A stretch of DNA of 64,000 nucleotides from assembly GCA_964106915.2 (NCBI GenBank), contig OZ066915.1, one strand, 5' to 3'. Below are positions 9,201-59,136 of the stretch, in pieces (position 1 is the stretch's first letter; every line of letters starts with the position of its first letter). Below the pieces are notes generated by a model that ran no database searches, was not told where the DNA came from, and saw only the letters and a list, made by a program, of their open reading frames with translations. This DNA is from Podarcis gaigeae. Lineage: Eukaryota. A program made the position numbers and the translations under genes.

Positions 9201-12200
9201 GGACCGGCTGACTGAGAAGGGCATGGAGCTCCGCCAGCTTAAGAGAAATCTGAGTGAGAATGATGATCCCTTCACACAGGTGGGTGGATTTTCACCACAG
9301 GATGGGCTTACTTGGTCCTGTGGAAACTACAGTCTGCTCTCCCTTTCCTTATTTTGCCTTCTCTTTTTTGGATCTTGCATCATCTTCCGTTCCTAAAGCA
9401 TCCGATCCTTAATTTGCATCCCACATACATCACTGTCAGCCATGTCACCCTTCTCTAGGCTTGCTAGTAGCCACTTTCCTGGATGCCTGTGGTGAATAAG
9501 AATGGCCTCAAGGCAATGGAGAAGCTTTTCTATGGAGTAAGAAAGCTGGTTGCTCCTACACTGCTTTCAGGCTTTCAAAGTGCCATACAGATTACTAACA
9601 TGGGTATGTTGGGGCAGGTGGACTAGTAACAGTACTTCATTGCAAGCCTGCTTATTTGCAAATCTCTCAGTGTCTGATTTCCACTCCTATCTGGAACCAA
9701 TTCCTGCCACCAATCTAATCCTGAGCTACTTTGAAAGAAAGGGTGGGATATAAATTTAATTAAAGAATTCCTTGCACATTCCTCATAAAGTATATAACAG
9801 AAATAGAGGAAAGGAAAAAATAGTTTACATAGGAGATGTGTGTGAAGTACCGTGTGTGCCAGTGGAAGGAAGGAGTAGAGCATGTAATCGTCGTGGTGAA
9901 GCTTTTCCACACAGAAATGGGTTATATTGAAATGCGTGTTGATGAGGGATCTCCTCTGTGGAGCAGACTGTAGAGCTGAGAAGTTGAGCTCCAATTTTTC
10001 TGCCTGGTCTGATTTTATTTATTTTACTATATGTATATGATCATTGAAAAACATCTTATCTTACATTGGTCCCAGCACCAGTGTCAAGGGAGCTGAACTC
10101 CCCACAGTGAAAGACAATGGCCAAATTGTGTTACAGGCAGGGGTTTAAAAACAATTGTGCAATTATGTTCATAAAAGTGACTTGCCCAATTGTCCCTATG
10201 TGAATAATTTGTGTGGTCTAAAATATTAAAGAACTACTTTTGGGGGCAAACTTTTCTGCTTGATTTCCTTGAAGGAATTCTTAGCCTCCCTAGGCTGTCA
10301 GGTAAATGATGCTTCATAGCCCCTTTTTGTTTTACTTGGTTTTGTTTTGAAAGTCTTCTTTTTTGTTGATGATGTGGAGAGCACAATAGAGTGAAAAAGT
10401 GAACTGCTCAGATAATATTGCAGGGTTTTGCTGCCCATCCATATCTTCTGTTTGGAACATGCAGTCTTACTGAGTGTCAAGCTATGCTCTGGGGACAGAA
10501 TGACTTGGCAGTTCTGCTGTCACTGGACTGTGTTTTGCTCTACCATCCTTAAAGTGCCAAGGAGTTACACATCATGAATAATGGAAAGCTGCTCCTTTTC
10601 TGAATCATAACATATGTTAATTAAGTTTATACAGTCATACATATTCAGGGTGATTATAAATGAGCTGACTTATTCTGAAGCAGGCAGCCTCTTCTTACCA
10701 GTCCTGTCTATAAACAGACTGGCAGCAGAATCTCAGGATGTAGACTCTCCCCAGTTCTGCTATCTGGATCCTTTCAGAGGTAACCAATGTGGTCTCTCTA
10801 GATGTTTCCATACTACAACTCCCATCATCCATGACCATTGGCCATGCTGGCTGGGGTTGATGGGGGCTTGGAATCCAACATCTGCAGGGTACTGTGTTGG
10901 CTATGCCTTTTACCTTGTGATGCTATGGACTTAAACTGAGACATTTAAAGAATGAGTCCTAGAGTAGAATAGATTTGCCTTCCATAGAAAGCCTGAGCTT
11001 TCTGGATTGGGATAACCTTTGGACTGAGAAAAGCCACTGATTTGCCAACTGAATTTGGCCATTCATCTCAAGGGCTGACGTAAGACCCCTCCATGATCTT
11101 CTCTCATTTTGACAGATGTTTGAGGATAAACAGCGCTTGTGGATGGATGAGCTGGATGAACTGAAGCAGATGTATGTAGCCAAGCTGCAGCAAGTGATGC
11201 AACAGGCCCAACGCAGCCAGCGGGCACTTCAGCTGCAGCTCTACAAAGCTCAGCAGGAAAAGAAACGGCTGCAAGAAGAGCTGGACCTTCAGCAGAGGCA
11301 GTGCGAGGAGCTGAGGCTGCAGCAGCAACAGGCAGAGCGCCTGAGCCCCAAGTTGGAGGAGACCCAGTGGGAGGTGAGTGGGGGAAACCCATACAGAGCA
11401 CGGTGCCAATGTCCACTGTGATCCTGGCTCTTCTTTGCTCCTCAGCATGCTCATATTCTACTGGTGTCCATGCATCCCCATCTGGGAGTGGAGGCTGCCA
11501 GTTCTATTGAACTCTGGTGTTTTTGCAAAGCAGATCAATTCTTACTAGACAGCTGGCAAAGTTTTTGTGGCTACTGCTTCCCTCTTGCCAAGCTGTAGAA
11601 CTAAGTTTTCACATGCAAAGCCTTATGTTCACAATCCTATCTGAGCAACTCCCAACATCTCCCTTTCTCTCTAGTCTTTGTTGTTGCTTGGTTGACTTTG
11701 CTGTGGGCATGACATTGTCCTTTGGAAATATTCCAACCCTTTCCCTCTGCTGTGCTGCAGCACCCAGGATCCAACAGCTCACTGCTTCTCTTTGTCTAGT
11801 CTTATCCCCTGTTCTCACCCTAATGTACTGTTTTGACAGGTCTGTCAGAAGACTGCAGAGATTTCATTGCTCAAGCAGCAGTTCCGAGATGCCCAGGAGG
11901 AGATAGCCCAGAAACTGGGTGAAATCTTCAGCTTGAAAACACAGCTGCGGGAGGTCCGAACAGAGCTGCAAGCCAAGGACTCACAACTGGCACAGTTGGG
12001 GGACTCTTTCCAAACCTTGCCAGAGCGCAGCTCCCCTGTTCCTCCACGGGACTCTCCCATGCAAGCATGCCAGGACTTTTTGGGTTGTGAAACAGATGAC
12101 TCTAAAAGTCAGGGGATGCAGGGGGAGAGCTCAGAGGGCGCTGAGTGGCTATGGGGAGAATTGCTGCGCGAGAGGCGCCAGGCCCAGCTACAAGCTGCAA

Positions 12201-12409
12201 ACTTTGAGCAGGAGCGGAAAACTTGGCAAAAGGAGAAGGAAAAAGTCCTGCGCTACCAGCGGGAGATTCAGGCCAGCTATATGGAGATGTACTACCGGAA
12301 CCAGACACTGGAGAGGCAGCTAAGTGAGTTCCGGCAGTTCCAAGCTGAGCCCAGAAGTATCAGCTCGGAGCCACCTTGGATTGAAAGAGTTGAGTCCTCA
12401 AAGATCTGA
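6296..12409 (+). CDS. N4BP3: NEDD4-binding protein 3 (Fezzin/LZTS family), 4 coding exons, ~588 aa
   Basis: Exons 6296-6697, 8743-9279, 11116-11373 and 11840-12409, all GT-AG and phase 0. The peptide has MATA...[31 protein letters not shown], a PPPPY WW-binding motif, the Fez1 coiled coil [16 protein letters not shown] and C-terminal ESSKI. A likely acceptor for an upstream non-coding exon ends at 6265. Confidence 0.95.
7634..7867. mobile_element. Tc1/mariner-type MITE (same family as 5061-5291)
   Basis: TIRs cagtggtaccttgggtta...taacccaaggtaccactg with a TA target duplication; internal sequence is nearly the same as the 5061 copy. Confidence 0.85.
7938..8182 (-). pseudogene. WDR83OS: Processed pseudogene of PAT complex subunit Asterix (WDR83OS/PAT10)
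   Basis: Minus strand reads [80 protein letters not shown]. This is colinear with Asterix (MSTNN...RYKP...[51 protein letters not shown]). No introns, in-frame TGA at 8017-8015 in place of Cys, and the C-terminal ~25 aa are missing. Confidence 0.9.
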
Positions 12410-12881
12410 ACAGTATGCAAGGGGCTCTGTGCTGGAATTACAAAGGGGAGAGGTACCACACAGCAGCATGGACCTTAGGGTTTTGGTAGAAGTGGTTAAA
12501 CTAAAGGGCTGGTTAACCTCGCCCATAGAGGATTTTGAAGACTGCTGCTGTCCATGGAATGGAATCCCAGCATTGCACCTGGCATTTTCTGTCCGTCCAG
12601 GTAGGCCTTTGCCTCCCTGTCACTGCTGTTTTGGAGGGCAGAATGCTTTCCTGTTGTGTCCTGCTTTGTGCCCACACTGGCACTGTCTGTCAGGATGGAA
12701 GGCTTGTTATTGTGGAATGTGAACAGCCACGATTGGGAGCTATGGCCCTTCTTGAAAAGATCTGAAGAAGAATGTGCAAATGATGGTGCCACCAAGTAGT
12801 GAGCCCTTCGTGGAGCTTTGGCTGTCTCTCTTCACAACTTGAGACTTGGCCTGTTGTGCTGAGAAGCAGCGGTGGGGCAAG

Positions 12882-13685
12882 CTTACAACACAAGGCCCAC
12901 ACAACTGGAGCTTCTAAGACAGGCACAGCATGAGGACCAGCGGCAGAGCAAACCGATCGGGCACCTGGGGTAGCGCGCGTGCCCTGTGCCTGCGGGGCAG
13001 GGCCAGCCAGGACAGGACACTCTGCAGTGCCTCTGAGGAGTCTGCCTGCCTCCTCCCACTCAGCCATCCTACAGCTGAGGGGGAGGTGTGGGCAGACCGT
13101 TTCGGGTAGCATGGAGCCTGCGGGTGCCCAAGCCACCGCGTCACTCCCAGGCCCCGTAGTGAGTGCTGCCTGGCATTTTGTGTCTCCCCTCAGTGGTGAC
13201 ACCAGGGCCCACCCATCCCACCGCACCCCTCCCCCCCCTCCGCTGAGAATGTTGAGAGCCAACCTACCTCAGCATGAGCCTTGCCCTGTAGGATTTGTTT
13301 ACTCTCCATCTGGCTTCTCACCACCAGGGGCGGAAGAATGACAAAAGAGGGGGGTGACAAAATGTGGGGTGGCACTCACCACGGGGCCTGCAGTGTGCCC
13401 GACCCACACGTCTCTCCTGGGAGTAACAAAGTGGCTTGGGCGCCCACAGGCTCCACGCTACCCCAAACGGTCTGCCTGCCACCTCCCCCTCAGCTGTAGG
13501 GCGGCTGAGTGGGAGGAGGCAGGCAGACTCCTTGGAGGCCCCGCGGAGTGTCCTGCTCCGGCTGGTGGTGCCCCTGGGCACAGGGCATGTGCGCTGCCCC
13601 AGGCACCCGATTGGCTTGCTCCGCTGCTGGTCCTCATGCTGTGCCTGTCTTAGAAGCTCCAGTTGTGTGTGCCTTGTATTGTAAG
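12882..13685. repeat. Long inverted repeat (arms ~12882-13191 and ~13347-13685) in N4BP3 3' UTR, built on a GC-rich transposon-like element
   Basis: 12882 cttacaacacaaggcccacacaactggagcttctaagacaggcacagcatgaggac... is the reverse complement of ...gtcctcatgctgtgcctgtcttagaagctccagttgtgtgtgccttgtattgtaag ending at 13685. Complementarity continues inward for ~300 bp. Confidence 0.9.
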
Positions 13686-16600
13686 TGACAAAATGTTCAG
13701 CTCCAGAATGCGTAAGTCTGGTCCAAAAGCTCACTGAAAGCCAAACCAATTGGGCTCATCAATCCAGAGGGCAGGCAGGGTCATCTGGGCTTGGGCCAGT
13801 TTCTCCATAGGCAATGGGGAGAATGGGGGGTGGGACTGTTCTGTCCCTCTGTTCTGTTGCTGCTTGGTGCCCCAGTTTTTGGATTTGAAGGTTCTGGGCC
13901 AGAGTGATGAGTCCTGAAATGGAAGTTCTACCTGGCAATTCCTGGAATAAAAATCTGCCTGACACCTTTGGCTCCACGTTTGTTGCTTTCTCTTTTCACT
14001 GTAGCATCCCCTAACATTTCTGCTATTGTTGACCATGGCATTTATACTGTAATGAACGTTCAATACACATGCTTACGTTGCTCCACAACCAGTTCTTGCA
14101 GTCTAACCTAGGCCAGATAGAGCAGTGAGAAGAAATGGGGCCGTGCATAAGACAAGAATGGAGATGACTCTCTTGCCTCTGTTTCTTCGGTAGGGAGGTG
14201 GGTGGGTGGGTAGGTAGGGGGTGGTGATAAAAGGGAATCTTCTTGAAGCATTTTTCTGAATTCAAGGGTGGAAAGTCATTTTAATCCTTTATCTGGACTG
14301 CAATCTGAGATGATGGAGAAAGGATTGATTGTGGTTTCTAGCATCCTGCAGCTTCTCTTCCTGCTTTAGAACAGGGTTTGCTCACCCTACTGGTGTGTGA
14401 GGTGAGCACAGAGAGTTTGGCATGCCCAAGCCATTTGAATTCAGGAAATGTACAGCGTAACTAGCAAGAGCAGAAAACAAAATAATTATCTGCTGGCTGG
14501 TAGAGGATTTGACAGATCGGATGACCAAATATTGTGCTGGGTGTGGGATATCCAGTCTTATATAACACAGCTTCCTTTCCTGCAAAAATTTCTCTAAATT
14601 ATACTGCAACTGAAGCAGCTAAGCAATTTAATTTATTAGCCTGAGAAACTGGCTGAGCTTCACTGTGGCCCCGCCACCTCTAGAAATCTAATGTATTTAT
14701 TGGATACCTATGATGTGTACTTGGCTCATGTCCAAGCCACAAGCCACAAGACAAAGGCCTGGGTTAGTGAATGGTGGAATGGAAATTAATGAAGAAATTG
14801 CAAAATAGATTGCACAAGAACACCAGGCTGCATAAAAATACTAGGCCTGGTTGGGAACGTGCTTCCTACAATTCCAGTTGAATTGGACTTCCCTGGTCCC
14901 AGGAAACTGCAAAGGCTTGGCTTGTTTTTCTTGTCGGACAGCTGGCTGTTGAAATCCCTTGTTTGTTTCACTGTGCCCACACCAGTCCAGTGCTCTGTTG
15001 GCGCCTCATCCAAAATCCCCAAAGCAGGTTTCCACCCATCAATTAGAGCTGTGCAGAGTTGAGGAGCAACCCAGGAGAGGGCGGCACCAAAACTTGGCAG
15101 CAAAGCCAGAAACCAAGCTGCTAGCTCAGATGCCACAGGGAAGAGTTGAGGCGTCACAGGGAGCAGTAGTGCTTGCCTTCTAGAGCTGCTGGACAAACCA
15201 GTTTCCTGAATTCCACAGGACTGAATCATTCCCTGGAAGGAGATGGGGCCCAGGCAGGTGCCACTGATACAAAGAAATCTGCGGTGCTACAGCTCCAATC
15301 CAAAAACATTTGGAAAGCTCAGACGTCCTGGCCCCTCCAGCCATCCTGCGTTTGGCATGTGTTTCCTCCAAAGGTCTATGACAGCAGTGTTTCCTTCTTG
15401 GCCCCCAGCCCAGAAACCTGGTCTCTACAGCTTTTGTGGAGACAAGTGTGTCACTCCACTTTACATTTCTTCCCACTACAGCTGGACATAAGACAGCCTC
15501 AAAAGCATGTACTGTTCACATTGGTGTTTTTCACTGGTGGGATTGTTCCTTAGTGTCAGTTCTGCCATTTCATTTCCTGGACCTGTAGGTGAACATTGCT
15601 CAACAATCCTTTCCCACTTCTGTGGTTTATATCCAGCAAAGATGTGGACACTACATTTTTGTCACAAGCCAAGGTCAGAGGTTTTCTGTAGACTAGCTCC
15701 TGTTTCTCAGCTTCTGTAGTTTCTGTCTATGAAGTGGACTGCCTGTGGATTCGCCTTTGTCAACATTGAGGCACCCAAACAGGTACTGATGCTCCACTGC
15801 AAGTCTACTGTACTAGCATTGTGGACACATAGCACAATTCATCTGCATAAGCAATGGCCAAATTGCTGTGCATAAGCTGGGTGTTTAGTTGTTTTATCAA
15901 ATTTTAATCAAGGTGTGATTGAATAAGAAATGCACACATAAGGAAAATAAAATGTCTGGCACATGTTGCTCATTGTTTTCAATGTAATGCCCCAGCTGAA
16001 AACCTTAGAAGAGCAATGAGATACCATGTGCATTTCATAAAAGTTGAATGGACTGCAGTCTAGTGTTTTCCAAAAAGTAAGGGACCACTGCTGATTTGCC
16101 TCTAGAAGAATAAATATATAGGAAATGAGTTAAGCCTTCATATAAGCCACCCATAAATGAATGTACCATTGGTAATGGAAAGCAGGGATACTTCTTATTT
16201 TCCCTTCTTGCCCCAATGGAAGTAAGTCCTGTTTAACACAATGGGACTTACTACTGAGTAGATGTTTATAGGGTTGCACAGTAAAGGTAAAAACCAATAC
16301 ACTGAATTTAAGTTGGAGATGTAACTGGATGCCACCAGAGCTCTCCCAGAATTGGGCTTATATGGCTCTCATTTTGTATTGGATGAAGTTTCAAGGGCAG
16401 CCCCATGCAGAATTCACTACAGCAATCAAGATGAATATTTACGTAGACATGCTCCTTGAGCATATATTAAAGGTTTGTATCACCTCTGACGCCTTGAGCT
16501 GAAGAATTAACAGAAATGCTTCAGAAAAGCCATAGTAAAACATGCCAGGGCTGTGTCACCTGTTGGAGCACTAAACCTGCTAGGATTGGTCGTTCTTAAT

Positions 16601-20600: not shown

Positions 20601-23600
20601 TTCGGCACTTGCACATGCACAGAAGTGCTAAATCATGCTTTACGCATGCACAGAAGCGCCGAATTGCGTCATGCGCGTGCGCAGACATGGTGCTGTGTTT
20701 TGCGAATGTGCCTCCCACACGGATCACGTTTGCAACCCGAGGTTCCACTGTATTAGATTGTCCAGAGTTCAGTATTTGTAGTAAACACATGTGTGCATTG
20801 TATTGGCTAAACAAGGGTGGCTCCTGTTTTTTTCTTCTTCTTCACACATAGTTTAAATGGGATTAGTTTTGGTTTTGCAGGGCTAGGAGTGAAAGCACGG
20901 GACATTAAGCAGAAGAATCAGAGTTGAATCTTGTGAGAATTTCCTTGACTGTTGCCAAGGAGAGGGATATTATTTAAGCCTTGATAGTGAACATGACTAG
21001 AAACCATTGCAAACTCTGTTCATGCCATAATAATGTGATCTCTACAGTTGCCAGGATGGCAACCCACCTTGCTTTCCAACATGCATAAGTTACATCAAAT
21101 GACTATACCCCCTTTTTAAACTCAAAGATGAAGAACTAGTGGCAAGCACTGTGGGAAGCCCAGATCATGAATAAGTTTTTGGAATTGAAACCAGTAATTC
21201 AGCTGTTGTCTGATATATCATTTAAGAAATTGAAGGAAGTTCTCCTGCCTCAACTGAGGATTGGGCCTAGGGTCCCTCCCCATCAGTATCTATGGAGAGG
21301 AAGACTTAACCCATGTGCTTTCCTTTTGCTGTTAAATCAAGAGCATCCACATTTCTCCAGCACACAACAAGCCTTTCTACCTATCCAATTCCTTGCTCTG
21401 AATTCAGCCTCAGTTCCGGGTTGATGATGTTCATAAACAACAAGAGTAGGGCTTTTTCTGTTGATAGTTTCCTCAAGGATAGTTTGTGAGGGAGCTACAT
21501 GATGATAGTGCTGGGCAGGACACTCCCTTTTTCTCCTTGCCACCAGAATGAAATTAGGTTGAGGGCCGCATCTGTGATCTACAAGCTTTATTGAGGTTCC
21601 TAAGCTCTGTTGCTTGCCTGTCTTTTCTCTTAGACTGTTTAAATTACTGGAAACAAGTTACTGACAAGAATGCCCCTGAATTTGAAAAAAGACTTGCATG
21701 GGGTGTAATATGGCTGCCACTACTATGTCCAAAACTTCAATATACTTCTCTACCTGTCTGTAGCTACTGCCAAATTCATAGTGATATGGGATGACAGCTA
21801 GTATTGTACTCAGTGCTGATGGAAAGCCACTTATTGTTCTGGGATTTGGAATACTATTTGGTCTGGGGCTTTCTTTAGTGCTTTTGAATGACTGACTCCT
21901 TGTTCTGTTCCAGCATTTTGATGCTGATTTGTGTGGCATTGTTCCTGCTATGGTCTGGGAGTCTCAAGAGAAGCAGATCCTGGTGTTGGCCATCATAGAG
22001 CACCTCTACCAACAAGGGATGCTGGGAGTGGCAGAGGAACTGTGTCAGGTACAGGGGTTTGAGGAGTTGGAAGTGCAAATGTTATTTGCATGGTGTATGG
22101 GAACCGATAGTTGTATCTCTACATTGTGCTATGCCGCTTCTTGGTAGGAAAGGTCTCTGTTTCTTGCTTACAAATGCAGGAGGATCAGAAGCCTGAACCT
22201 GCCAGCCAGTTCCACTGCAAAGTACAACAAGCTGCCTATTATGCTGCCTGTTCTATCCAACCTGCAGAGGATAGATATGTACTTGACAGCTTCCCTCTGG
22301 GAATATATATCTTACCTAGAGCCTTGTTCTAATTTTGCTTGCCCTTCCACAGGAATCCACTGTGAATGTGGATGTAGACTTTAAAAAGCCATTCCTGGAA
22401 CTTAACAGCATATTGGAAGCTCTGCACAAACAGGATCTGGAGCCTGCTCTGAGGTAAGAATGATGAGCTATATTCTGTTTCCCCTCTTAGGAAGTACAGT
22501 GGGAGAGGAAACAGAGTCCTAACAGAATGATTTTGAAGTAGGGCCTATGGCAAGGGCCATTGGGAGAACCACACTCCTCATTATCAGTGAGCCTATCCAC
22601 TCTATGGGTCTACCATCTTTTCTCTTCCAACAAGCACTGAGAAGTGCTGCTTGTTTTGTTTTCACTCATTATCTTCTACACAAGGCCAGGGTATTCCTGT
22701 AATAAGATACCTGAACTTGTGAGCTCACAGCATGCTGCTGCAACCTGCCTCAGACCAGGTCGTCCACAAATATGTAGCTTGGATTGGAGCAGCACCCACT
22801 CTAAGGGCAGCTTTATATGTAGATGATGGCATTGAGCAGTGTTGTCTCTTGCTCAGTTGGGCAGTCTTCCACCGACAGCAGCTGGCAGAAATGAACAGCA
22901 ATCTGGAGTTCCGGCTGCATCGACTCCACTTCATCAGGCTCCTTGCTGGCGGTCCAGGCAAGGAGCTAGAGGCCCTGAGCTACGCACGCCATTTCCAGCC
23001 CTTTGCTCACCTGCATCAGCAAGGTGAGGCTGTTTCCAGAAGCCTACTCTGCTACTTGTTCCTTGGGAGGAGCTTTCTTGCCTTTAGGCTGTTTCTCTGG
23101 GCCTTGCCACACCCAATAGAATGGGCTCCTATTTTGTTGCTTCAAAGTGTTTGGAGTTTCCCTTTTTAGTAGGGGAAGTCTTGGGAGTTGTTGACTCAGC
23201 CTGGTCATTGTCATAGGTATCAACCATTTCCCAATAACTGGTTCCATAACAGGCCAGCCCCGTTAGCAAAAGTATGTTTACCTGAGTGCTGCTTCCTGCA
23301 TTTGTCATCTGCAGAGATCCAGGTGATGATGGGCAGCCTGGTGTACCTGCGTTTGGGCCTTAAGAATTCTCCATATAGGCATCTTCTGGATGAGAGTCAG
23401 TGGACTGAGATTTGTGAGATATTCACTCGTGATGCCTGTGCCCTGTTAGGTCTCTCAGTGGAGTCACCTCTGAGTGTCAGGTAAAGCTTGTTATGGGTGG
23501 GACTGGTGGTGGATTGAGCAGTGCTGAGCTATCTCCTCCCTCCTTCTCTCTCGGCAGCTTTGCTGCAGGATGTGTAGCGCTGCCGGTGCTGATGAACATC

Positions 23601-24964
23601 AAGGCTGTGATTGAGCAGAGACAGTGCACGGGTGTCTGGAGCCACAAAGATGAGCTGCCTGTGAGTGCCTGGCCCATTCAGGGGCTGCAGGGTGGGGATA
23701 TTTTTGTGAAAGAGAGTTAACTGTAACAACCAGGTCATGGGCCTAATTATTTTCTGCTTGTTTTATCAGATTGAAATTGAGCTTGGAATGAAATGCTGGT
23801 ACCACTCGGTCTTTGCATGTCCCATTTTGCGACAGCAGACAACTGATTCTAACCCACCTATCAAGCTCATCTGTGGGCATGTTATTTCTCGAGATGCCCT
23901 TAACAAGCTCATCAATGGAGGGAAGTGAGTGGTTTTTACAAACTGTTGTTACTTTCCTCCATTCTGGGAGGCTGTGGATGATGAACTCTTGCCTGAAAAA
24001 TTGAAGTATCCAGAGTCTCCTACCTGTGAAATGCTATTGTCACCCTGACAGGATTAGATTCCCCACACATCTCATTTCCGTGTACTGTATTTTTCACTCT
24101 ATAAGATGCACTTTTTCCCTCCTAAAAAGTAAGGGGAAATGTGTGTGCGTCTTATGGAGCGAATGCAAGCTGTGCAGCTATCCCTGAAGCCAGAACAGTG
24201 AGAGGGAGCGCTGCGCAGCTGTTCTAGCTTGTGGCTTAGCCGTGCGCAGCCTCTTAAGGGCAGCGGGGAGCCTTCATCCCGCTACCCTGAAGAGGCTGCG
24301 CAGCTATCCCAGAAGCCAGAAGAGCAAGAGGGATTGGTGTGCACCGATCCCTCTTGCTGTTCTGGCTTCAGGGATAGCCACACAAACCCTCTTGGGCACA
24401 GTGGGAACGCTCCTGCCTCTTCGCTCAAGAGGGTTGGTGTTGCTTTCATGTTTCTTGTTTCCCTCCTCTAAAAACTAGGTGCATCTTATGGTCGGGTGCG
24501 TCTTATAGAGCGAAAAATATGGTAGGTCCAGGAAGTCCCTTTCATCTTGAAGCAGTTTCTCACTATCATTTTATTTTTTGGGACTACATGTTAGTTTCAC
24601 TGTGTCTGCTGCCCTCTGCTGGGTAACTAGGTCATACTGCAGTTGCTACAGTAAGGGGGACCTTAGCACTGCTCCTTGTAGTTTCTTAGTAACTGGCAAG
24701 CCCAAGGCCAAATCAGACTTGTTAACGGGGCAGAGAAGAGAGTGAGGTAGTGGACCAAACACCAGGACTTGCTAGTGGTCTACTGGAAGTATGGGTCTGG
24801 GTCAGCTTCCTGCTTATCTGATTTAGTGGTCTGGTAGGACTACTTGCCAATGAGAATTCTAAGGCCTTGTTTTGATTCTGGTCTTTCTTTCTTTGTGCAG
24901 GCTGAAGTGTCCATATTGTCCCATGGAGCAGAGCCCAGCTGATGGAAAACGCCTAATCTTTTGA
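17414..24964 (+). CDS. RMND5B: E3 ubiquitin ligase RMND5B (CTLH/GID complex RING subunit), 9 coding exons, ~391 aa
   Basis: Exons 17414-17552, 20060-20205, 21914-22048, 22353-22453, 22857-23023, 23315-23480, 23558-23660, 23770-23924 and 24901-24964 total 1176 nt in frame. Peptide runs [18 protein letters not shown]... through LisH/CTLH/CRA regions to the [55 protein letters not shown]. Position between N4BP3 and NHP2 supports the 5B paralogue. Confidence 0.95.
18123..18363. mobile_element. Tc1/mariner-type MITE
   Basis: TIRs tagtggtacctcggtttac...gtaaaccgaggtatcactg with TA flanks. Confidence 0.8.
19005..19235 (+). mobile_element. tRNA-derived MIR/CORE-like SINE
   Basis: A-box-like gtggtgtcatggttagagtgctggac, core ctcagcttatcctacctcatagggttgtt, and an A-rich tail. 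A reverse copy lies at ~27460-27650. Confidence 0.6.
19645..19945 (-). mobile_element. RTE-clade LINE 3' fragment
   Basis: Minus-strand peptide [16 protein letters not shown]...REKRAKRK...[18 protein letters not shown] is typical of the C-terminal region and C2H2 finger of RTE-type ORFs; it is frameshifted. Confidence 0.65.
20507..20750. mobile_element. Tc1/mariner-type MITE
   Basis: Imperfect TIRs cagtcatacctcgggttg...caacccgaggttccactg with TA flanks. Confidence 0.75.
24085..24522. mobile_element. Tc1/mariner (pogo/Tigger-like) non-autonomous element
   Basis: TIRs ctgtatttttcactctataagatgcac...gtgcgtcttatagagcgaaaaatatgg with TA flanks. A related copy in opposite orientation lies at 26959-27452. 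Confidence 0.75.
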
Positions 24965-26890: not shown

Positions 26891-26958
26891 TCGGAACTGT
26901 CCATCTCCCTTCACCATGCATTCTGTGTTTACTTGTATTATTTATTTTAATTTTATTA

Positions 26959-27452
26959 CCGTATTTTTCACTCTATAGGATGCACCCGACCATAGGACGC
27001 ACCTTGTTTTAGAGGGGGAGAACAAGAAAAAAATTCCCCCTCTGTGCTCAGCGCCCCTTCAGCAAAGCGGCAGGAGAAACGGAGCCCCTTCCATTTCTCC
27101 TCCCGCTTGGCTGAAGGGGTGCTGCGCAGCTCTCCCTCTCTGCTGAAGCCAGGAGAGTCTTGCTCTCTCAGCTTCAGCAAAAGGAACCCGAAGCCTTCGG
27201 AGCGCAGCACGAGTTCCCGCTGCACTCCAAAGGCTTCAGGCGGCTATCCCTGAAGCCCGGAGAGCAAGAGGGGTCGGTGCGCACCGACCCCTCTTGCTCT
27301 CCAGGCTTCAGCGAAAGCAACGCGTAGCCTCCGGAGCGCAAAGGGAGTGCTCCCTCTGCCAAGGAGCCTGCACTCACTCCATAGGACGCACACATATTTC
27401 CCCTTAATTTTTGGAGGGGGGAAAAGTGTGTCTTATAGAGCAGAAAATACGG
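26959..27452. mobile_element. Tc1/mariner (pogo/Tigger-like) non-autonomous element
   Basis: TIRs ccgtatttttcactctatag...cttatagagcagaaaatacgg with TA flanks. Confidence 0.75.
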
Positions 27453-28461
27453 TAAATATATATCCCACCTTTCCTCTAAGGCGCTCGAGGTGGCATACAT
27501 AGCTTTCCCTCCCCATAAACACAACAACCTTATGAGGTAGATTAGCCTGATGGCAGTGACTACTAGTCCAAGGTCACTCAGTGAACTTCATGGCAAGTGG
27601 GGATTTGAACTCTGAACTCCCAGGCCCTAGTCCAACACTACACCACAGTAGTCTAGATTACATAAGACTGGAGAAGGGAACTAGCTGGAGGCTAACTAAG
27701 GCTACACTTCTATGGCCCCTGGAAGGGCATCTCAGAGGTGCTATTTCTTTTGAGGTAGGGGGCATCTCTCAAGGGCAGAGAAGCTGACCTTGAGATCCTC
27801 CTCTCAGAAGACTGAAAAGTTCCACAGGTGGTGCTTCTTTTAAAAGTCCAAGGATGTTTAAAAGGGAGAAGCTGTGGACCTACAAGCCCCAAAGTTCTCC
27901 TGTTGCCCCAGCCCAGGGGAACAAACTATGCCAGCTCTCACACTGAAATAAATGGGACGGACACTGCTGAAGGGAGAAAACAACACCCACTGCCACCACC
28001 TGCCCTGCCAAAACAGGGATATTGCAGTTTCTCTACCATATGTGGATTGATCAGCTTACACATTAAATTTAAAAATCATTTATTTATCTACTTCAAGTGG
28101 AAGAATGTAAAAGTTGGTGAACACTTCACCTTGTCAAGGATAAGTTGTGGTATGTAGGGGTAAATAGTGTGTTGTAATAGACACTACACAACATTACAAG
28201 TGTTTTAATGAGTTTAATCTCTCCGCCTCCCCCCCCCCCCCCAAGCTTCACAAACTTCCCTTGCTGCAAGACAAGTCAATAACTTCTTTCTAAATCAGTT
28301 GCTTAATATCTGGCACTTGAAGCGGGTATGAGCCACAGGGCTGGTGACAGTGCCAATTGTAGTATTCTCTTCCTTGCACGGCTCCTCTAAAATCAGGGTC
28401 AAGCTACTGCCCAGGCAAGTGCCTGCTTGTCAGTCTTAGTAGCATCTCTTACTGATGTTCT

Positions 28462-30275
28462 TCACAGAGGGAGGGGAAGAGCCTCCACCTCTTCCATACA
28501 CTCATCATAGGCTTCCTGATATTCCTCATGGGGCTTGATCATGATAACACACGTTGGTCGCTTTGAACCTGCAGCTGCTCCCAAGTCCTGAAAGAAAAAA
28601 ATAGGAAAGCGGCATTCAGTTTCCTAATTCACATACAAGTTTACCTTTTTTACTTTAAGCAGCAAACGGACCTTGTGCCAATTCACATGGAGAAATTATA
28701 TAAATGCCAGCTGCATGAAACTGCTCTTCTAGAATAACCAAGATTTCTGTTCCTTATCAGGATGCAGGTCTATGGTGAAGAATAAAAATTCTACAAGAAA
28801 TGGAAGCCTCCTTCTACTTCCCCACCCTACATTACCGTTTTGGAAGGGATGTAGACATATGGAAGGCTCCTGTCTTCACACATGATGGGAATGTGGCAAT
28901 AGACATCAATAGGAAGTGTGTCTCCTGCAAGAACTGTGATCCTAAGAGAGACAGACAATGCAGCATCAGCAACAAAAATAAGACCAGAGCAATGCAAGTA
29001 GAGAAGACAACAAACACATTAAAACAGATATAGTATGAATCTTTCCAAATATTTGATATTGTAATACAGGTATAATCCTGTGTATACGTATCAAATTGTG
29101 CTTCATCTCTGCAGTCATCATTTGCACAAATAAGAGATTTCAAGCATGCATGTACACACATAAGGGAGGAGGTGAAATAGCTCACTGAGGCAAGTATGTC
29201 CATGCAAGGCAAAAAACTTACTATGCGGAGCCAACTGAAAACAAGGTCTGATGAAAAGGATTAAAATCTGTTTTTGCTGGGCAAAGTATACTCATTTGCA
29301 TGCAAGACACCCTTACTCATTCTCACACACAACCAGATTGTTTCTCTGGTGATGATGCCTTCAAGGATGAAGGCCTTCAAATGTTACAAATCTGATAATC
29401 CCTGAAAATTAGCTATGCTAGCTGTGACTAAGAGGAGATGGAATAAAAAGTTTCCCCACCCTTGTATTAGCACAGCCTTCGCCAATCAGGTGCCCTTCAG
29501 GTGTTGTGGACTACAACTCCCATCAGCTGTGCTGGCTGGGGCCCTGAGCTGTAGCCAAAATATCTGGAAGGCACCAGTTTGGCAAAGACTGCACTAAAAG
29601 CAGAGTTCCTTCAGTCCCTTTGTCTCTTGCACCAACAGAATCACAGGATTATAAACTAGTTGAGGATTATTTGAAAGCTTGCGACCCTGAACATCTCAGA
29701 AAATGTCATCTACTGATTCCAAAGCTGTGTGTGTGTGTGTGTCTAAACAACACATAACTGCGTGTCTATAGCTCTCACCGATAGATAGACAGACAGAAAG
29801 AGGATTTCCTAACACGGTGAGAGTAGGGACCAGACCTGGCGAACCAGACTGGCTCCGAATTCAAGACCTGAACTGGTAGCGTCAGGCAGCGGCACGGAGA
29901 GCGAAAGAAGGCATATCGCGTCGCAACGGCGCGGAGTTCTTACCCCTTCTCGCCTTTGTTGATGAATTTCTGGACCTCTTTCACCCCACGCCGGATCTGC
30001 TTCTGCTTCGATGCTGCAAGTCAAACAGGAGAGTTTCCAGCAACGGTTGTTGGACGGAGCCCCCACCGCCCGCGAAAGCCGGTCTGCCCTCCTTCCCCTC
30101 CCCGTCCTGCACGCGCACCTTTCTTGATGCACTTGTACAGCTTGCGCGTCAACTTGCGGGAGGCCAGAGGCCGCGCGATGGCGTTCACGTTCTCCACCAG
30201 CTCGTGGTATGACTTCTCCGGGGTCGCCTCGGGCTCCGGCTCTTCCCTCGACTCCTGATGCTTGGCTTTGCCCAT
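28462..30275 (-). CDS. NHP2: H/ACA ribonucleoprotein complex subunit 2, 4 exons, ~152 aa
   Basis: Minus exons 30275-30119, 30013-29944, 28941-28836 and 28587-28462 total 459 nt. Peptide: ...IARPLASRKLTRKLYKCIKKASKQKQIRRGVKEVQKFINKGEKGITVLAGDTLPIDVYCHIPIMCEDRSLPYVYIPSKTDLGAAAGSKRPTCVIMIKPHEEYQEAYDECMEEVEALPLPL*, L7Ae family. Minus-strand AATAAA at 28084-28079. Confidence 0.97.
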
Positions 30276-37400: not shown

Positions 37401-40400
37401 GAAACTGTAGCCCTCCACATGTTGGGCTCCAACCCACATCAGCCCCAGGCACATGGTCAGTTGGGTTTGGGCAGATGGGCATTCTAGTCCAATAATCTCC
37501 AGAGGGCCACAGCCTTCCCATCTGTCCCATAAAGTCTGTCTTCTCTCACCATTGGTGAGTGTGCATGGGCAGGTGGAATGGACACTGTGTGGAATGGGAG
37601 GATCTGCAGCCATATGGGGATCCCTTCATATGAGTAAGGTCATCTGGGATGTGTGTGACCATCTATGCAATGTAGTCTTTGTTTGCTTCATATACACCTT
37701 GGTTATTTTTTTCCTTCTCTCCTGTGACTTTTTAATACATAGTGTTTCATTTTGTGTTTTTAGCATTGATTATATTGGGGAGGTGGGCTTGGGGAAAAAA
37801 TCTGTCTTGTGTTTCCAAGGAAAGCTCTACAATTTTCTCCTTTTTGAGCTGATCTTTCCTGTCTGGCATTTCTTACAAATTAAGCCAAGCTAACCTGAAT
37901 TTCTAGTCATGGATGAGAAACAGAGTGTTATTTCTTTGGATGAGAATGAGGGAGTTTTTTGTTTTGGATTTTCCTTGCCTCTGTACTTGATTGACTTTAT
38001 TTACTTGATTGACTTTATCCATGTTGCTGGCTCCTTGCTTAAATGCTACATGAGAGCAGCTGGAGCATCTCAGCGGAGCCAGCTGCAAGAACCTGAGTTA
38101 GTTTTATTGGTAGTACAGGCAAGACCTTGTTGTATGTAGATAGCAGCGGGACAGTCTGTGTATTGGTTTTTAGTATGTGAATATCCTTTGGCAGGTGGGT
38201 GAGAGCGACATGACAGTAGTTTCTGGTCACACAAGCAGCTCTGGTCTCCTCCTGGAAGTGGGAGGGGTTCTTCCAGGGCTACACGGTGGAGAAATGCAGT
38301 CAGCTTCAACTACGGTTCCTGCATCTCCTGCTGCTTCAGGTAGGCCTATTCTGCTATTGTTGTGTTTTTCTCTCTTCTGCATTAGTATCCTAGAGTTGGA
38401 AGGGGCTTCAGAAGAAATCCACTGCTACAGTGTGTAATTTCTGGTCTGCCATTTGTGTTGAGAACAGCAGGGGGTGTGAGGGTCCTGTTTCAAATAATGT
38501 GAATAAATCAAGAACATATTCTATGAAAGCTGAGACCTTGGAGACCAAATATGTAATTTGCATGGCAAAGCCTTTAGTCAAAGCTTTGCTTGTATGTGTC
38601 GGGGCTTTGTGTGATGTTTGATCATGTTACTTCGTGTTATGAATGTTATTGCCTTGATTCTCTTCCTTAAATCACTTTGTTCGCTTACTTCCCCTTAATG
38701 TCATATTTAGCTTAATGTTCCTTTCCACTTCCTCCATTCTTTTGGTATGTTTGTTCTTGGTATGAGCTTTCGTGTGCATGGTATCTGAAGAACTGTGCAT
38801 GTACACAAAAGCTCATACCAAGAACAAACTTAGTTGGTCTTTAAGGTGCTACTGGAAGGAATTTTTTGTGCACTTTTGTATGTATTTAACTGATAGCTTG
38901 AAACTTTTATCTGAACCATAGTGTGTCCTTTTCCCCTGCTCCCCCTTTCCTCCCTCCTTCCCTATCTTTCCCCTGCCCTCATTGTTAAGCACCTAGCAGT
39001 AGGCTGGTGGTGGGGAACCTAATTACATCCACGACCTCAGCAGTTAGCCCACTAGTTTGAGATGTACAGGTATAGGGTGGTATACAGATTTAATAAATAA
39101 TATTTTTTCCCTTGTTTTGACGTCTTATGGCATCAGGTGCAGGAAAGTTCAAGCAGGAAAAGTTTAATAATAATAATAATAAGAGGAGAAAAAGTGTGAA
39201 TATATTCCTGAATCTTCCGTTGGAGCCGGGGTTTGAAGTTTGTCACATAATGTCCTACGACATCGGCTAATTAACCCAAGGAGGCTCAGCCACTTTTGGA
39301 TCCAGCTCTCCAGTGTGATCCAATTCCTCACCCCTTCTAGATGCAAAAGGATAATACAAACATAAAGATTGGTGCCATGTGCAGCACAAAGTACCCTGAG
39401 AATCTCAACTTTTTTAAAAAAGTAGTTTTCTGGCCCATTTTAAAACAGTGTTAAAAGTGTAATTCCTGAGGAAAATGCAGGTGTTGGGGAAGTGATGTAT
39501 TCTATACTGGTTGCAGAATTCACCTTCTCTTGGTCCAAATATTTCCAGAGCACTGTTAACATGGTGCATATACAGGCTTGGCTTCAGAGTTCTGCATCAG
39601 ACTTTGTCTGCTCCAGCCCTGCTACATGACATAAGATCTTGATTGATGCCGAATTGCCTTCCTAGCTTGGTCCTCCTCCTCCATTTTTCTCGCAATGATA
39701 AACCTTATGAGGAAAAAAAATTGGGCTCTAAGTCTGCTAAACACTCCGGATTCAGCAGAAGACTTGTGTTGAGGTTCCATGAAAGGCATTTTATACTTTA
39801 CTAGCTCCCATGACTCCAGAATCCTGCTATCCCTTGGGCATTGTTGCTCAGCCCAAACTTTGCTCACTCCCTTCCTTCCCCTATCCGATTCCATCTATAC
39901 CAAAATATTGTGAATTCTGCACACCTTTAAATACTGAAAATTGAATTTAGGTTTTGCAAATAAAGGGAAAGCTATGAAAACCTCCTATGATTTGTTCAGT
40001 GTACGAAAATGTTGTTTTGCCCCAGATTTGGATTTCTTCTAGTGGTATAAAATGCTGCCCTTCCTCTTTTAAAAGCACACAGTGATCCTTGCTTGTATAT
40101 GCTCCTGAGCCCTGCTAAGTGAGTCCCAGGACAGCTCTCTGTGGTCCGTTTTGTGACTTGTGTCGGCGTGTGCAACCCTGGTGGGCATGAGCAGGTCAAG
40201 AGCCCAAAGATTGCTTGCTCTGTAGTATTCTGTAGCTTCTTGGCTAATGTGCTTTCCCCCTTCTTCACACTTTTGTTAGGTGCTCCTACACTTTCCCGCC
40301 TTTTAGAAGCTGGTCCAGCGCAATTCACCACATCGCTTGCTTCCTTTTCTGCTGTTGCCAGTGAACCTCCAGGCAAACTCCTGCCTCCCCCTGTAGAGTC

Positions 40401-56300: not shown

Positions 56301-59136
56301 TTTTTTAAATAGCAGAAATCGTATCAGACTTGCTTCATGATCCTAAAATCCAATACACTCCTGAGATTTTCACCCTGGGGTTTTTTTTTGGCAAGCAGCA
56401 TCAAATTTATAAAGGTGTATTTGGGTAAACAGGAGCGACTGCCCGTATCTGGTGGTTATTAAGAGGGCAAACTATGTGTGTAAGGTGAGGGTGAGGGTTG
56501 AAATTTAAGAGGAGGAAATGTATAAATAGAGGAAATGTGCGACAATTTAGTACCGATACAGTGAGAGTAAACCTAAGACTTTAAAACCTGTGTGGAAAGA
56601 CCAGAGTTGGATACTGAGGGAGTCAAAGCTCGAACAGAAAAATGTTGTGGGTCAAGCTCAGAGAGAACTGGTGAAAATATGGGGGAAGACACTGGGATCC
56701 CAGGACTGAAGCCCAGAGGAAATGGAGTGTCCTATATGTATTAGCGTTAGGAATGTTGAAAGCAACCTTATACCAAATCAGACCCTTTGTCCCTCTAGCT
56801 TAGCACTGTCTACTCTGACTGGCAGCTATCCTCCAGATTTCAGACTAGGGACATTTTCAGTCTTGTCTGGAGACTGAACTGCAATCATTGCAATCATTGC
56901 AACCAAAGCAGATGCTCTTCCACTGAGCTACAGCCGAAGCTAGCACGTGAGCCAGTGACAAACCCTCTTCCCATCTCATGTACCTCTTGTAGATGGGTCA
57001 CGTGTGGACCTGGCTGGAATCCAAAGAAGAATTCTTCACGGAGTCTGAGTGATTTCTTAGCCAATTGACTTGCATCTGCCAATCACTGTCATCCCCACCA
57101 GTCATTCTGAGATACAGAAAAGGGTGTGGCATGAAGTCCGGCGGTGAGCCAAGGGATTGTGTAATGCACATGGGAAAGCCTATTTAGCTCTCTTCATCTC
57201 TGTCTCCCCATTAGATACAGCGGCCCCTTTCTGAAGCCCGTTTCCGAGAAGCAGGCTCCTGGTTACAAAGATGTGGTGAAAAGGTCAGCTGAAAAAGTGG
57301 AGGGAGAGCTGGTATGGAGAATAAGGCTGTGAGAGTGGTACAAGTCACAACAACTTCCATGGTTGCAGTTCCAGCCGAATTGTCCAATGCCAGAGTCTAT
57401 GATATGTTATGGGATCAGTTTAAGCTTATGCAGTCAAGTTGATATGGATAAGATGCTGGTGGCAATACGTCTGCCCACATGCCCTCTTCACCCCTGCCCT
57501 CCTAGCTGCTTAAATCTACCAAAGGGGGTTTGATTCCTTGGGGCCAAGGCATGGAGAGAACATTTTATTGTGTGATGGGGTGGTTCCAGCTGCCTTGAAA
57601 GAGATGGTGGTGTGAACACTCTTGAAGAAACTGGCCCTGGGTCCTTCGGACTAGAATAACTACCATCCAGTTGCAGCTACCAATTTCTTGGTGGCAGAGA
57701 GAGTAGTGGCAGGGCAGCTGCAAGCATTATTGGAGGACACAGAGCATTTAAACCCATTCCAATCTGGGTTCAGGCTTGACTATGGGACCGAGTCATCCTT
57801 GGCCACCTTTACAGTGAGCAGGGCAAGGGTAGTGCAGCTTTGTTCCTGTTTTTCTGCCTCTCTGCTGTTTTTGATACCAGTGTCCATATAGCCTCTTGGA
57901 CTGGCTCCATGGAATGAGAAATGGGGGTTCCAGTCCTACCTACATTGAGAGAGTACTTTTTGGCCCCTTTGGTGGTTAAATTAAGGGATGCTGCCAGGCA
58001 CTATTTTATCCCCTATGCCACTGAATACCTATATGAAGCTGTTGGGAAGCGGTCATTAGGCATTTTGGGGCCAGATGCCATCAGTATACTTATGACACTC
58101 AGCTCTATTTCTCCATAACATCTGGATCAGGAGAAGCCTGCCTGGATGCAGTGGTGGGATTGATGAGGTCCGTGAGTCAGTCTCCCAGTCCCTCCCCTTA
58201 CCTACCCAGTAATTATTATTGATTGAAAAGCAGTGAGGTAGAGGATGGGATTTGAATTGAGACTTCAGTACTGGGGTAGATTCCCTTAACATGAATCACT
58301 CCCCCAGAGGCTATTGTTTAGATCAGTATTTCCCAACCTTGTGCCTCCAGCTGTTTTTGAACTACAACTCCCATCATCCCTGACTAGCAAGACCAGTGGC
58401 AAGGGATGATGGGAATTGTAGTCCAAAAACAGCTGGAGGCACAAGGTTGGGAAACACTGGTTTAGATGAGAAAAGACAATCACCTGTATTGTACCCATCT
58501 TCCTATCTACCCACTCTGTGGATAATAGCAGCTTTAGTGTGTGATTTATGTATTAAGCAGTATGAGTATGTGAAGGGTTAAAGCCACCCCCAGAATCATC
58601 ATAGACCTGTTCCAAATTGAGGGAAGGGGCTGATTTCAACCAAAGAAAAGTATGTTGGAAGATTAAATCCACTGTATAACACAGCCAGTAATTGCCACCA
58701 TCCACTGATGGAGGAACAGAAATTCTTACTCTAAGGATTGGATATTTCCTTTGAGAGCTGTCTGGGCTACCAAGTTAAAATTCTGCTAGTTTCCAATCTA
58801 TAACCGCCCAAATCCTTCTCTGAGAGACAATGTAATTTTTTTCTTAACAACTTGGCCAAAATGACAGACAATTGCAACTCACTTCTCCCTCCTTTCTGAA
58901 GACCAGCCGATCTTTCCTCCATAAAGAGGAGCCTCTCCAAGGGCCGCATTCAGAATATGGTGCAGTTCCAGCGGGATCTCATGCTGATGTTCCAGAATGC
59001 CATCATGTACAATAATGCCAACCACCATATACATCGCATTGCTCTGGAGATGCAACGAGAAGTCCTGGAGCAGCTTCAGATGCTGGGCGAGGCACTCCTG
59101 TGCTCAGAGGAAATGCAGGGCTTTGTGAGAAGGTGA
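53354..59136 (+). CDS. BRD8: BRD8 long-isoform 3' exons encoding the second bromodomain (spliced from 47131; full ORF ~1343 aa)
   Basis: Exons 53354-53653 (MGHVWTWL...LRFLSE), 54048-54521 (VTHLMEPLCI...), 54792-54934, 55861-55950 (SQDDPLQQHLLFKKTLLSIWKMVAGHR), 57215-57283 (YSGPFLKPVSEKQAPGYKDVVKR) and 58902-59136 (PADLSSIKRSLSKGRIQNMVQFQRDLMLMFQNAIMYN...). Phases are consistent and the peptide matches the C-terminal part of the long human BRD8 isoform as recalled. Confidence 0.88.
56745..56935 (-). mobile_element. tRNA-derived squamate SINE (Squam3-like)
   Basis: Ends agcagatgctcttccactgagctacagcc, the reverse complement of a tRNA-like head. Related copies at ~30830-31015, 52845-53035, 59390-59550 and 63465-63610 (+). 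Confidence 0.6.
56936..57049 (+). repeat. 114-bp duplicate of BRD8 acceptor plus exon start (source 53297-53410)
   Basis: 4 mismatches over 114 bp. The copy keeps the polypyrimidine tract, AG (56991-56992) and ATG GGT CAC GTG TGG..., and is followed directly by TGA (57050-57052). Confidence 0.92.
57420..58175 (+). mobile_element. Degenerate L2/CR1 LINE reverse-transcriptase fragment
   Basis: Peptide remnants NNYHPV..., ERVVAGQLQALLEDTEHLNPFQSGFRLDYGTES (FQSGFR..GTE motif) and a YxDD-like region near 58085. Confidence 0.75.
58324..58459. mobile_element. Palindromic hAT-type MITE with 8-bp TSD
   Basis: Near-perfect hairpin cagtatttcccaaccttgtgcctccagctgtttttg...caaaaacagctggaggcacaaggttgggaaacactg; gtttagat is duplicated at 58316-58323 and 58460-58467. 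Older relatives at ~5410, 5930, 6920, 10780, 29470 and 37390. Confidence 0.85.

Follow-up and report, generated by a model that had tools for sequence, protein, structure and literature searches.

A long predicted RNA hairpin in the likely N4BP3 3′ UTR of Podarcis gaigeae, probably built from two opposed hAT-type MITE copies and local templated copying

Introduction

In human 3′ UTRs, inverted Alu pairs (IRAlus) place two roughly 300-nt inverted copies of an abundant repeat close together in one UTR (PMC11263572), and neighbouring inverted repeats are the main ADAR targets across animals, a lizard included (PMC5625713). Hairpins can also be made by template switches, a mechanism class in which a nearby sequence is copied as its reverse complement before synthesis returns to its template, creating or extending a stem (10.1101/2023.04.19.537475). 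Among DNA transposons, hAT elements and their MITEs carry TIRs of 10–25 bp and 8-bp target-site duplications (PMC3942097). The inverted duplications of Ac/Ds and Mu killer combine an inverted transposon with host flank and are transcribed from a host promoter into dsRNA (10.1101/2020.01.07.897926). In SOS splicing, paired inverted repeats within an mRNA act as a sequence-independent trigger (PMC12779559).

Herein, we describe a fold-back hairpin in the window, the 64,000-nt stretch of Podarcis gaigeae DNA that was analysed. Like IRAlus, it consists of two roughly 300-nt inverted copies of an abundant repeat, close together in one likely UTR; the arms are likewise about 81–86% complementary, and a long dsRNA is predicted. 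Unlike the 7SL-derived Alu SINE, the repeat is a DNA-transposon MITE with TIRs and 8-bp duplications, 56 bp of unique flank extend the stem, and editing is here likely by analogy, regulation improbable. The locus shares with template-switch hairpins the nearby reverse-complement copy and the return to the template, but here a transposon pair seemingly guided the switch, which would have duplicated an element end, and the stem greatly exceeds a miRNA hairpin in length. The family shares with non-autonomous hAT elements its 11-bp TIRs, 8-bp duplications, short non-coding sequence and high copy number. The Ac/Ds and Mu killer cases are kilobase-scale, involve active elements and yield plant silencing siRNAs, whereas the MITE family found here looks old. 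SOS splicing is shown in worm and human reporters; by analogy, the N4BP3 hairpin is a possible natural substrate, although no hairpin-skipping contig is listed for the locus.

Results and Discussion

Geometry and predicted fold of the hairpin

The hairpin was originally placed between the stop codon (12409) and the first AATAAA (13946), and both positions proved correct. Its arms span 12882–13191 and 13347–13685, with 155 nt separating the innermost arms. The proposed reverse complementarity around a loop of about 155 nt was confirmed by four ungapped segments (Table 1) and by BLAST of arm against arm (233 of 271 positions identical, E 1e-86). Folding of 12860–13700 as RNA gave −646.8 kcal/mol, compared with −369 ± 7.8 kcal/mol for 20 shuffled sequences (z −35.5). 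In the predicted fold of 12410–13965, 286 pairs join the two arms, 20 of them G–U, and the unbroken helices reach 47 (the longest), 37 and 29 bp. No known miRNA or other Rfam family was recognised: 0 of 15 Rfam matches reached the gathering threshold, and the best scored 32.6 bits against 100, on the internal hairpin of the MITE. This 32-bp internal hairpin, at 13463–13535, is the source of sub-threshold Rfam miRNA matches.

Other fold-back repeats are present in the window. A second, nested inverted-repeat set lies at 24083–24524 and 26957–27454, 2.4–3.2 kb apart, between the CTLH and L7Ae matches described below; each side is self-complementary, and the set is likely another MITE pair. Short fold-backs occur at 58319–58464 (63-nt arms, 92%) and 38746–38832 (35-nt arms, 91%).

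Table 1. Features of the N4BP3 hairpin and its surroundings (positions in the window)
Feature	Position	Strand	Remarks
Last coding exon, N4BP3-like gene	11840-12409	+	ORF ending in TGA at 12409; Pfam Fez1 E 5e-36
Target-site duplication of original left insertion, outer copy (CTGAGAAG)	12859-12866	+	likely; 7/8 to 13243-13250
Stranded 15-nt MITE 3′ terminus	12867-12881	-	likely original left-copy end; compared with family end
Outer stem, left arm (inverted copy of unique flank)	12882-12937	-	54/56 to 13630-13685
Left MITE copy	12938-13245	-	29-nt internal deletion, damaged 5′ TIR; 85% to consensus; profile E 5e-75
Target-site duplication of left insertion, inner copy (CTGAGAAT)	13243-13250	+	likely
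Spacer (loop), non-element	13246-13324	.	ends in 12 nt (13313-13324) that match 12856-12867 reversed
Right MITE copy	13325-13629	+	5′ part rearranged; 89% to consensus; profile E 2e-91
Outer stem, right arm (56-nt unique sequence)	13630-13685	+	likely source of left copy
Direct repeat, 12 nt	13685-13696	+	exact copy of 13354-13365 (inside right MITE), at stem end
AATAAA	13946-13951	+	first after stop; polyadenylation likely near 13964
Arm segment	12882-12990 / 13577-13685		90% identity, ungapped
Arm segment	12994-13088 / 13480-13574		86% identity, ungapped
Arm segment	13091-13151 / 13416-13476		87% identity, ungapped
Arm segment	13148-13191 / 13347-13390		80% identity, ungapped

The host gene and its 3′ UTR

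The start of the last coding exon near 11840 coincides with a joint in two spliced retrocopies. The protein-atlas neighbours of the exon product are the Fez1, N4BP3 and LZTS1 clusters, and this search by itself therefore does not tell the paralogues apart. Downstream lie a CTLH-domain gene at 22849–23478 (+) and, at 28836–28940 (−), a weak match to L7Ae (E 0.06); these neighbours fit the human gene order, N4BP3-RMND5B-NHP2. In two studies of organism B, probable-RNA contigs stop at 13963 and 13964, 12–13 nt beyond the AATAAA; past 13964 the four probable-RNA runs concerned have no cover, and DNA contigs continue. These ends hint weakly that the transcript terminates near 13964 and that the UTR spans the stem. 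Taken with the Fez1 domain and the CTLH and L7Ae neighbours, they support the proposed placement of the stem in the N4BP3 3′ UTR as likely. Additionally, one contig of X1 (probable RNA) ends at 14010, and a low-depth X1 contig at 14111–14700, past the AATAAA, could reflect read-through, carried-over DNA or a longer 3′ form.

Two intronless retrocopies of the N4BP3-like gene, L034 (G000:C30:1742706-1746470) and L035/L036 (G000:C3:5194801-5198279), are about 87–90% identical to the parent gene. Both lose similarity to the window at 12599, which ruled them out as a record of the empty site. They have a common tail of 330–400 nt, absent from the rest of the genome in the search. A splice-donor-like CAG/GTAGGC at 12598–12606 marks the point where the similarity ends, through an old alternative 3′ end or chance. 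One X1 contig looks like a rearranged retrocopy.

The MITE family

A genome search with the hairpin returned 2466 first-look candidates, of which 40 were scored, giving 91 matches. Among the scored loci, those elsewhere match one arm length, a unit of roughly 285–340 bp, and never the whole hairpin. The family consensus is 337 bp long and non-coding, with 11-bp TIRs whose consensus ends agree at 10 of 11 positions. Thirty loci were fetched for target duplications; after three self-matches and one duplicate were left out, 12 of 26 had exact 8-bp duplications and 2 more had one mismatch. Because short TIRs and 8-bp duplications define hAT elements, we assign the element to the hAT-type MITEs; its short, non-coding, dispersed copies agree with that superfamily's MITEs. 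Its CAGGG-type termini resemble those of the Tip100 group, to which the family may belong. One 28-mer of the MITE has 316 exact genome matches on both strands, compared with none for its reversed control, and the copy number is at least 316. The family looks old, at about 5% non-CpG divergence from the consensus, and may already bear a name in repeat databases.

In the search for an autonomous partner, which covered DUF4371 only, MITE termini were present at 0 of 15 DUF4371 loci within about 1.5 kb of the match. Two DUF4371 matches, L038 (G000:C1:109567671) and L041 (G000:C2:65529581), lie in open frames of 730 and 854 aa and may be intact hAT transposases or domesticated genes. Two further MITE copies, L009 and L010 (G000:C30, 7.2 kb apart), have equal scores and common flanks, likely through a recent tandem segmental duplication. 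Loose contig ends at 13530–13531 reflect related MITE subfamilies that diverge past the internal hairpin.

Two inverted copies form the inner arms

The inner arms had been read as one palindromic element. This reading failed: they are two inverted copies of the 337-bp MITE, and within that element only the 11-bp ends and the 32-bp internal hairpin are palindromic. The 29 nt reported missing from the left arm between CCTG microhomologies are retained in the family consensus, which confirmed their loss from the left copy. In the 5′ part of the right copy, about 40 nt of consensus are replaced by a TGACAAAA repeat; no target duplication flanks this copy, the best match between its 5′ and 3′ flanks being 5/8.

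Left and right copies are 81% identical, compared with a pairwise mean of 80.9% among 24 family copies, figures biased by the 25 aligned or tested family loci being the best matches to the N4BP3 locus. They differ at 20 of 196 non-CpG columns (10.2%), compared with 9.6 ± 2.0% for pairs among 22 copies, and at 22 of 55 CpG columns. This divergence, equal to that of family pairs, indicates that the arms are two family members about as old as the family's spread. Six departures from the consensus are common to both copies, and all six recur in 2–11 other copies. A FastTree of 24 copies, with low supports, did not pair left with right. The family is star-like, so the arm divergence fits two insertions or an early local duplication alike. 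Close inverted pairs of this MITE are uncommon: the N4BP3 pair is the only one within 1 kb among the first 100 of the 316 matches, and chance would give 0.06–1 pair within 500 bp genome-wide, given 600–2500 copies.

The outer stem and its junctions

The outer 56 nt have only two genome matches, both at this locus, in a search that skips very common words. They lie outside the repeat family, as proposed, and occupy two places that differ at two positions (12889/13678 and 12897/13670). As in a template switch, 12882–12937 is the reverse complement of a nearby sequence, 13630–13685, at 54 of 56 positions. The inner arms had been described as more diverged than the outer ones. Most of this excess is CpG decay (22/55 CpG against 20/196 other columns), and the outer 2/56 compared with the inner non-CpG 20/196 falls short of significance (Fisher P 0.18, binomial 0.07). 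At 2 changes in 56 the outer stem seems younger than the inner one, but a younger age lost significance once CpG sites were removed (P 0.07–0.18).

The element terminus noticed outside the left arm at 12867 is indeed present and occupies 12867–12881. Three matches at the junctions speak for local copying, with chances from statistics chosen after looking: the pair 12859–12866 and 13243–13250 agrees at 7 of 8 positions (0.004 within 7 registers), 13685–13696 equals 13354–13365 at 12 of 12 (0.0006 near one junction), and 13313–13324 matches 12856–12867 reversed at 11 of 12 (about 0.004 among 5 junction flanks). The 7/8 pair makes 12867 to about 13242 the likely extent of the left insertion, with the 56 nt and a new element end inside it. 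At its return point, the inferred switch has one base of microhomology. Taken together, the inverted 56 nt of unique sequence, the stranded element end and the 7/8 pair suggest local templated copying. The proposed template switch that copied the right flank in reverse is supported in this form, the unique flank fitting a switch or templated repair. The spacer was also considered as a decayed third MITE end and rejected, since 300 of 2000 shuffles and 367 of 2960 random pieces of the window scored at least as high and there was no profile match.

Contig support

Sequencing data, all in the form of contigs, comprised 18 runs guessed to be RNA and 6 unlabelled runs, the RNA labels being guesses. 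We compared 5 of the 18 guessed-RNA runs and 3 of the 6 unlabelled runs, the latter large and treated as DNA. The left junction is crossed by contigs of organisms E, F and G (12397–12927, 11800–13049 and 12551–12967; DNA runs X19, X21 and X24); the organism E contig may share its source sample with the assembly. Both right junctions are crossed in organism G by an X24 contig (13595–14700). Probable-RNA contigs bridge the junction of the left outer arm in X5 and the right outer arm in X3, and those of organisms A, B and C run from upstream to 12872–12927 and again from 13549–13686. Bridging of the outer junctions in contigs of other organisms argues against an assembly artefact. No listed contig, DNA or RNA, crosses the spacer or the entire hairpin. 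The spacer bin 13244–13297 has zero cover in four probable-RNA runs, which are therefore uninformative there, and no contig joint skipping the hairpin occurs among those listed. Organisms A, B, E, F and G all have the outer junctions. The duplication is older than the divergence of these close relatives.

Editing and selection

ADAR prefers UAG and AAG contexts. In X3 (organism A, represented by probable RNA only; depth 12), A>G changes lie in the right outer arm at 13652 (UAG) and 13655 (AAG), and the same contig carries A>C at 13636 in that arm. X5 (organism B) has none of these three changes. The A>G pair is thus found in 1 of 3 probable-RNA runs covering 13652–13655 or part of the arm, in contigs, which drop minority variants; ADAR editing of the stem is only hinted at. 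Per-run counts of A>G and T>C were 8/2, 10/6, 11/7 and 4/1 in four probable-RNA runs, 11/8 in X1, and 17/14, 26/21 and 25/22 in DNA runs, but these mix species differences with other MITE copies and were not used as evidence.

Organism B, which has both outer-stem mismatches of the window, shows 0 changes in 92 outer-stem bases against 17 in 511 of the flanks (binomial 0.044, Fisher 0.09), a faint hint of constraint. In organism F, 2 changes occur in 112 outer-stem bases among the rows listed, or 3 at most, against 1.7 expected from the flanks. Two left-outer-arm changes are found in F and two in G, none matched by a partner change among the rows listed. On the sequences compared, there appears to be no clear sign of selection on the stem, and the outer stem seems to change about as fast as its flanks. 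At two positions, 12920 (C>G) and 12931 (T>C), F and G have changes in common that break pairing with the right arm; the window pairs perfectly at both, as does B at 12920. This pattern may reflect correction between the arms, lineage sorting or, at 12931, CpG decay.

The original prediction linked N4BP3 to MAVS antiviral signalling, which agrees with the account of human N4BP3 as a promoter of RIG-I/MAVS signalling (PMC8646042). Its suggestion of an MDA5/MAVS feedback role for the stem found nothing in support, the outer stem evolving about as its flanks do. A literature search on N4BP3 in lizards or RNA editing, with most subscription papers outside its coverage, returned nothing on this locus.

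Proposed origin and alternatives

We consider it probable that the hairpin comprises two opposed hAT-type MITE copies joined to a local templated copy of 56 nt and an element end, and that it gives a predicted mRNA duplex of about 290 bp, a likely edited and near-neutral passenger. Editing and neutrality are here likely by analogy with the general behaviour of UTR inverted repeats. In this account, the left copy would have inserted first, with the target duplication CTGAGAAG. Synthesis or break repair near its 3′ end would then have switched to the inverted, homologous right copy and read on past the element end into 56 nt of flank. Return 15 nt before the old element end would have left that end stranded. 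Given its missing target duplication and the nearby matches to both of its junctions, the right copy may likewise be a product of local copying, about when the family spread.

Transposase-driven alternative transposition, using sister chromatids or hybrid ends with re-replication, could have produced the structure in a single event, as for maize Ac/Ds, where it yields inverted duplications and composite insertions (10.1101/2020.01.07.897926). The hAT hallmarks of the family, a duplicated unit that begins at an element end, the right copy's missing target duplication and the lack of a significant age difference between outer and inner arms all accord with such an event. Yet there is no new 8-bp duplication to indicate a second transposase target, the 15 stranded nt are cut inside the element, away from a transposase cleavage site, and the maize inverted repeats are kilobases to megabases long. 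We regard this origin as unlikely, with a minor but appreciable chance. The single palindromic (fold-back) element extended by a template switch shares with our account the inverted 56-nt flank and the stranded terminus, both of which are real. It is largely refuted, and we give it a very slight chance, as the other scored loci hold one unit of about 285–340 bp with its own TIRs and target duplication and no 800-bp palindrome. An inversion created by misassembly would agree with the lack of a listed contig bridging the spacer or full hairpin. It is barely credible, since the arms differ by 14–19% and by a 29-nt deletion, unlike a fold-back chimera, and the left and right junctions are bridged in other organisms by X21 (11800–13049) and X24 (13595–14700).

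As to function, the duplex could have been co-opted under selection for N4BP3 regulation through editing, nuclear retention, Staufen decay, excision or immune feedback. The outer junctions in five related organisms (A, B, E, F and G), the 0 of 92 outer-stem changes in organism B, the part of human N4BP3 in promoting RIG-I/MAVS signalling (PMC8646042) and the described ability of UTR inverted Alu pairs to regulate mRNAs (PMC11263572) would suit such a role. Against this, F and G each have two left-outer-arm changes without a listed partner, A has three in the right outer arm, and the inner arms have decayed like unconstrained copies. The compared organisms are only about 2–4% apart, so that presence says little, and the 64-kb window has other fold-back repeats. 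Co-option is therefore improbable. A working switch is a bolder possibility, and we hold it to be highly improbable: the fold-back would be edited, or excised from the N4BP3 mRNA as a natural substrate of SOS-type excision in a vertebrate 3′ UTR, tying the level of an RLR-MAVS activator to dsRNA handling in the cell, or its small RNAs would silence the MITE family as Mu killer does MuDR.

Conclusions

Our preferred reading, two opposed MITE copies with local copying, makes the N4BP3 hairpin an inverted-Alu-like UTR duplex of an already known kind, probably neutral. Greater importance would follow only if the duplex controls N4BP3, whose human orthologue promotes antiviral signalling, and nothing here indicates such control. 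The locus neatly illustrates how a DNA transposon and local templated copying can give a non-mammalian mRNA an inverted-Alu-like duplex, the marks of copying being still legible, and it could offer a locus-specific test of ADAR editing or SOS-type excision in these animals.
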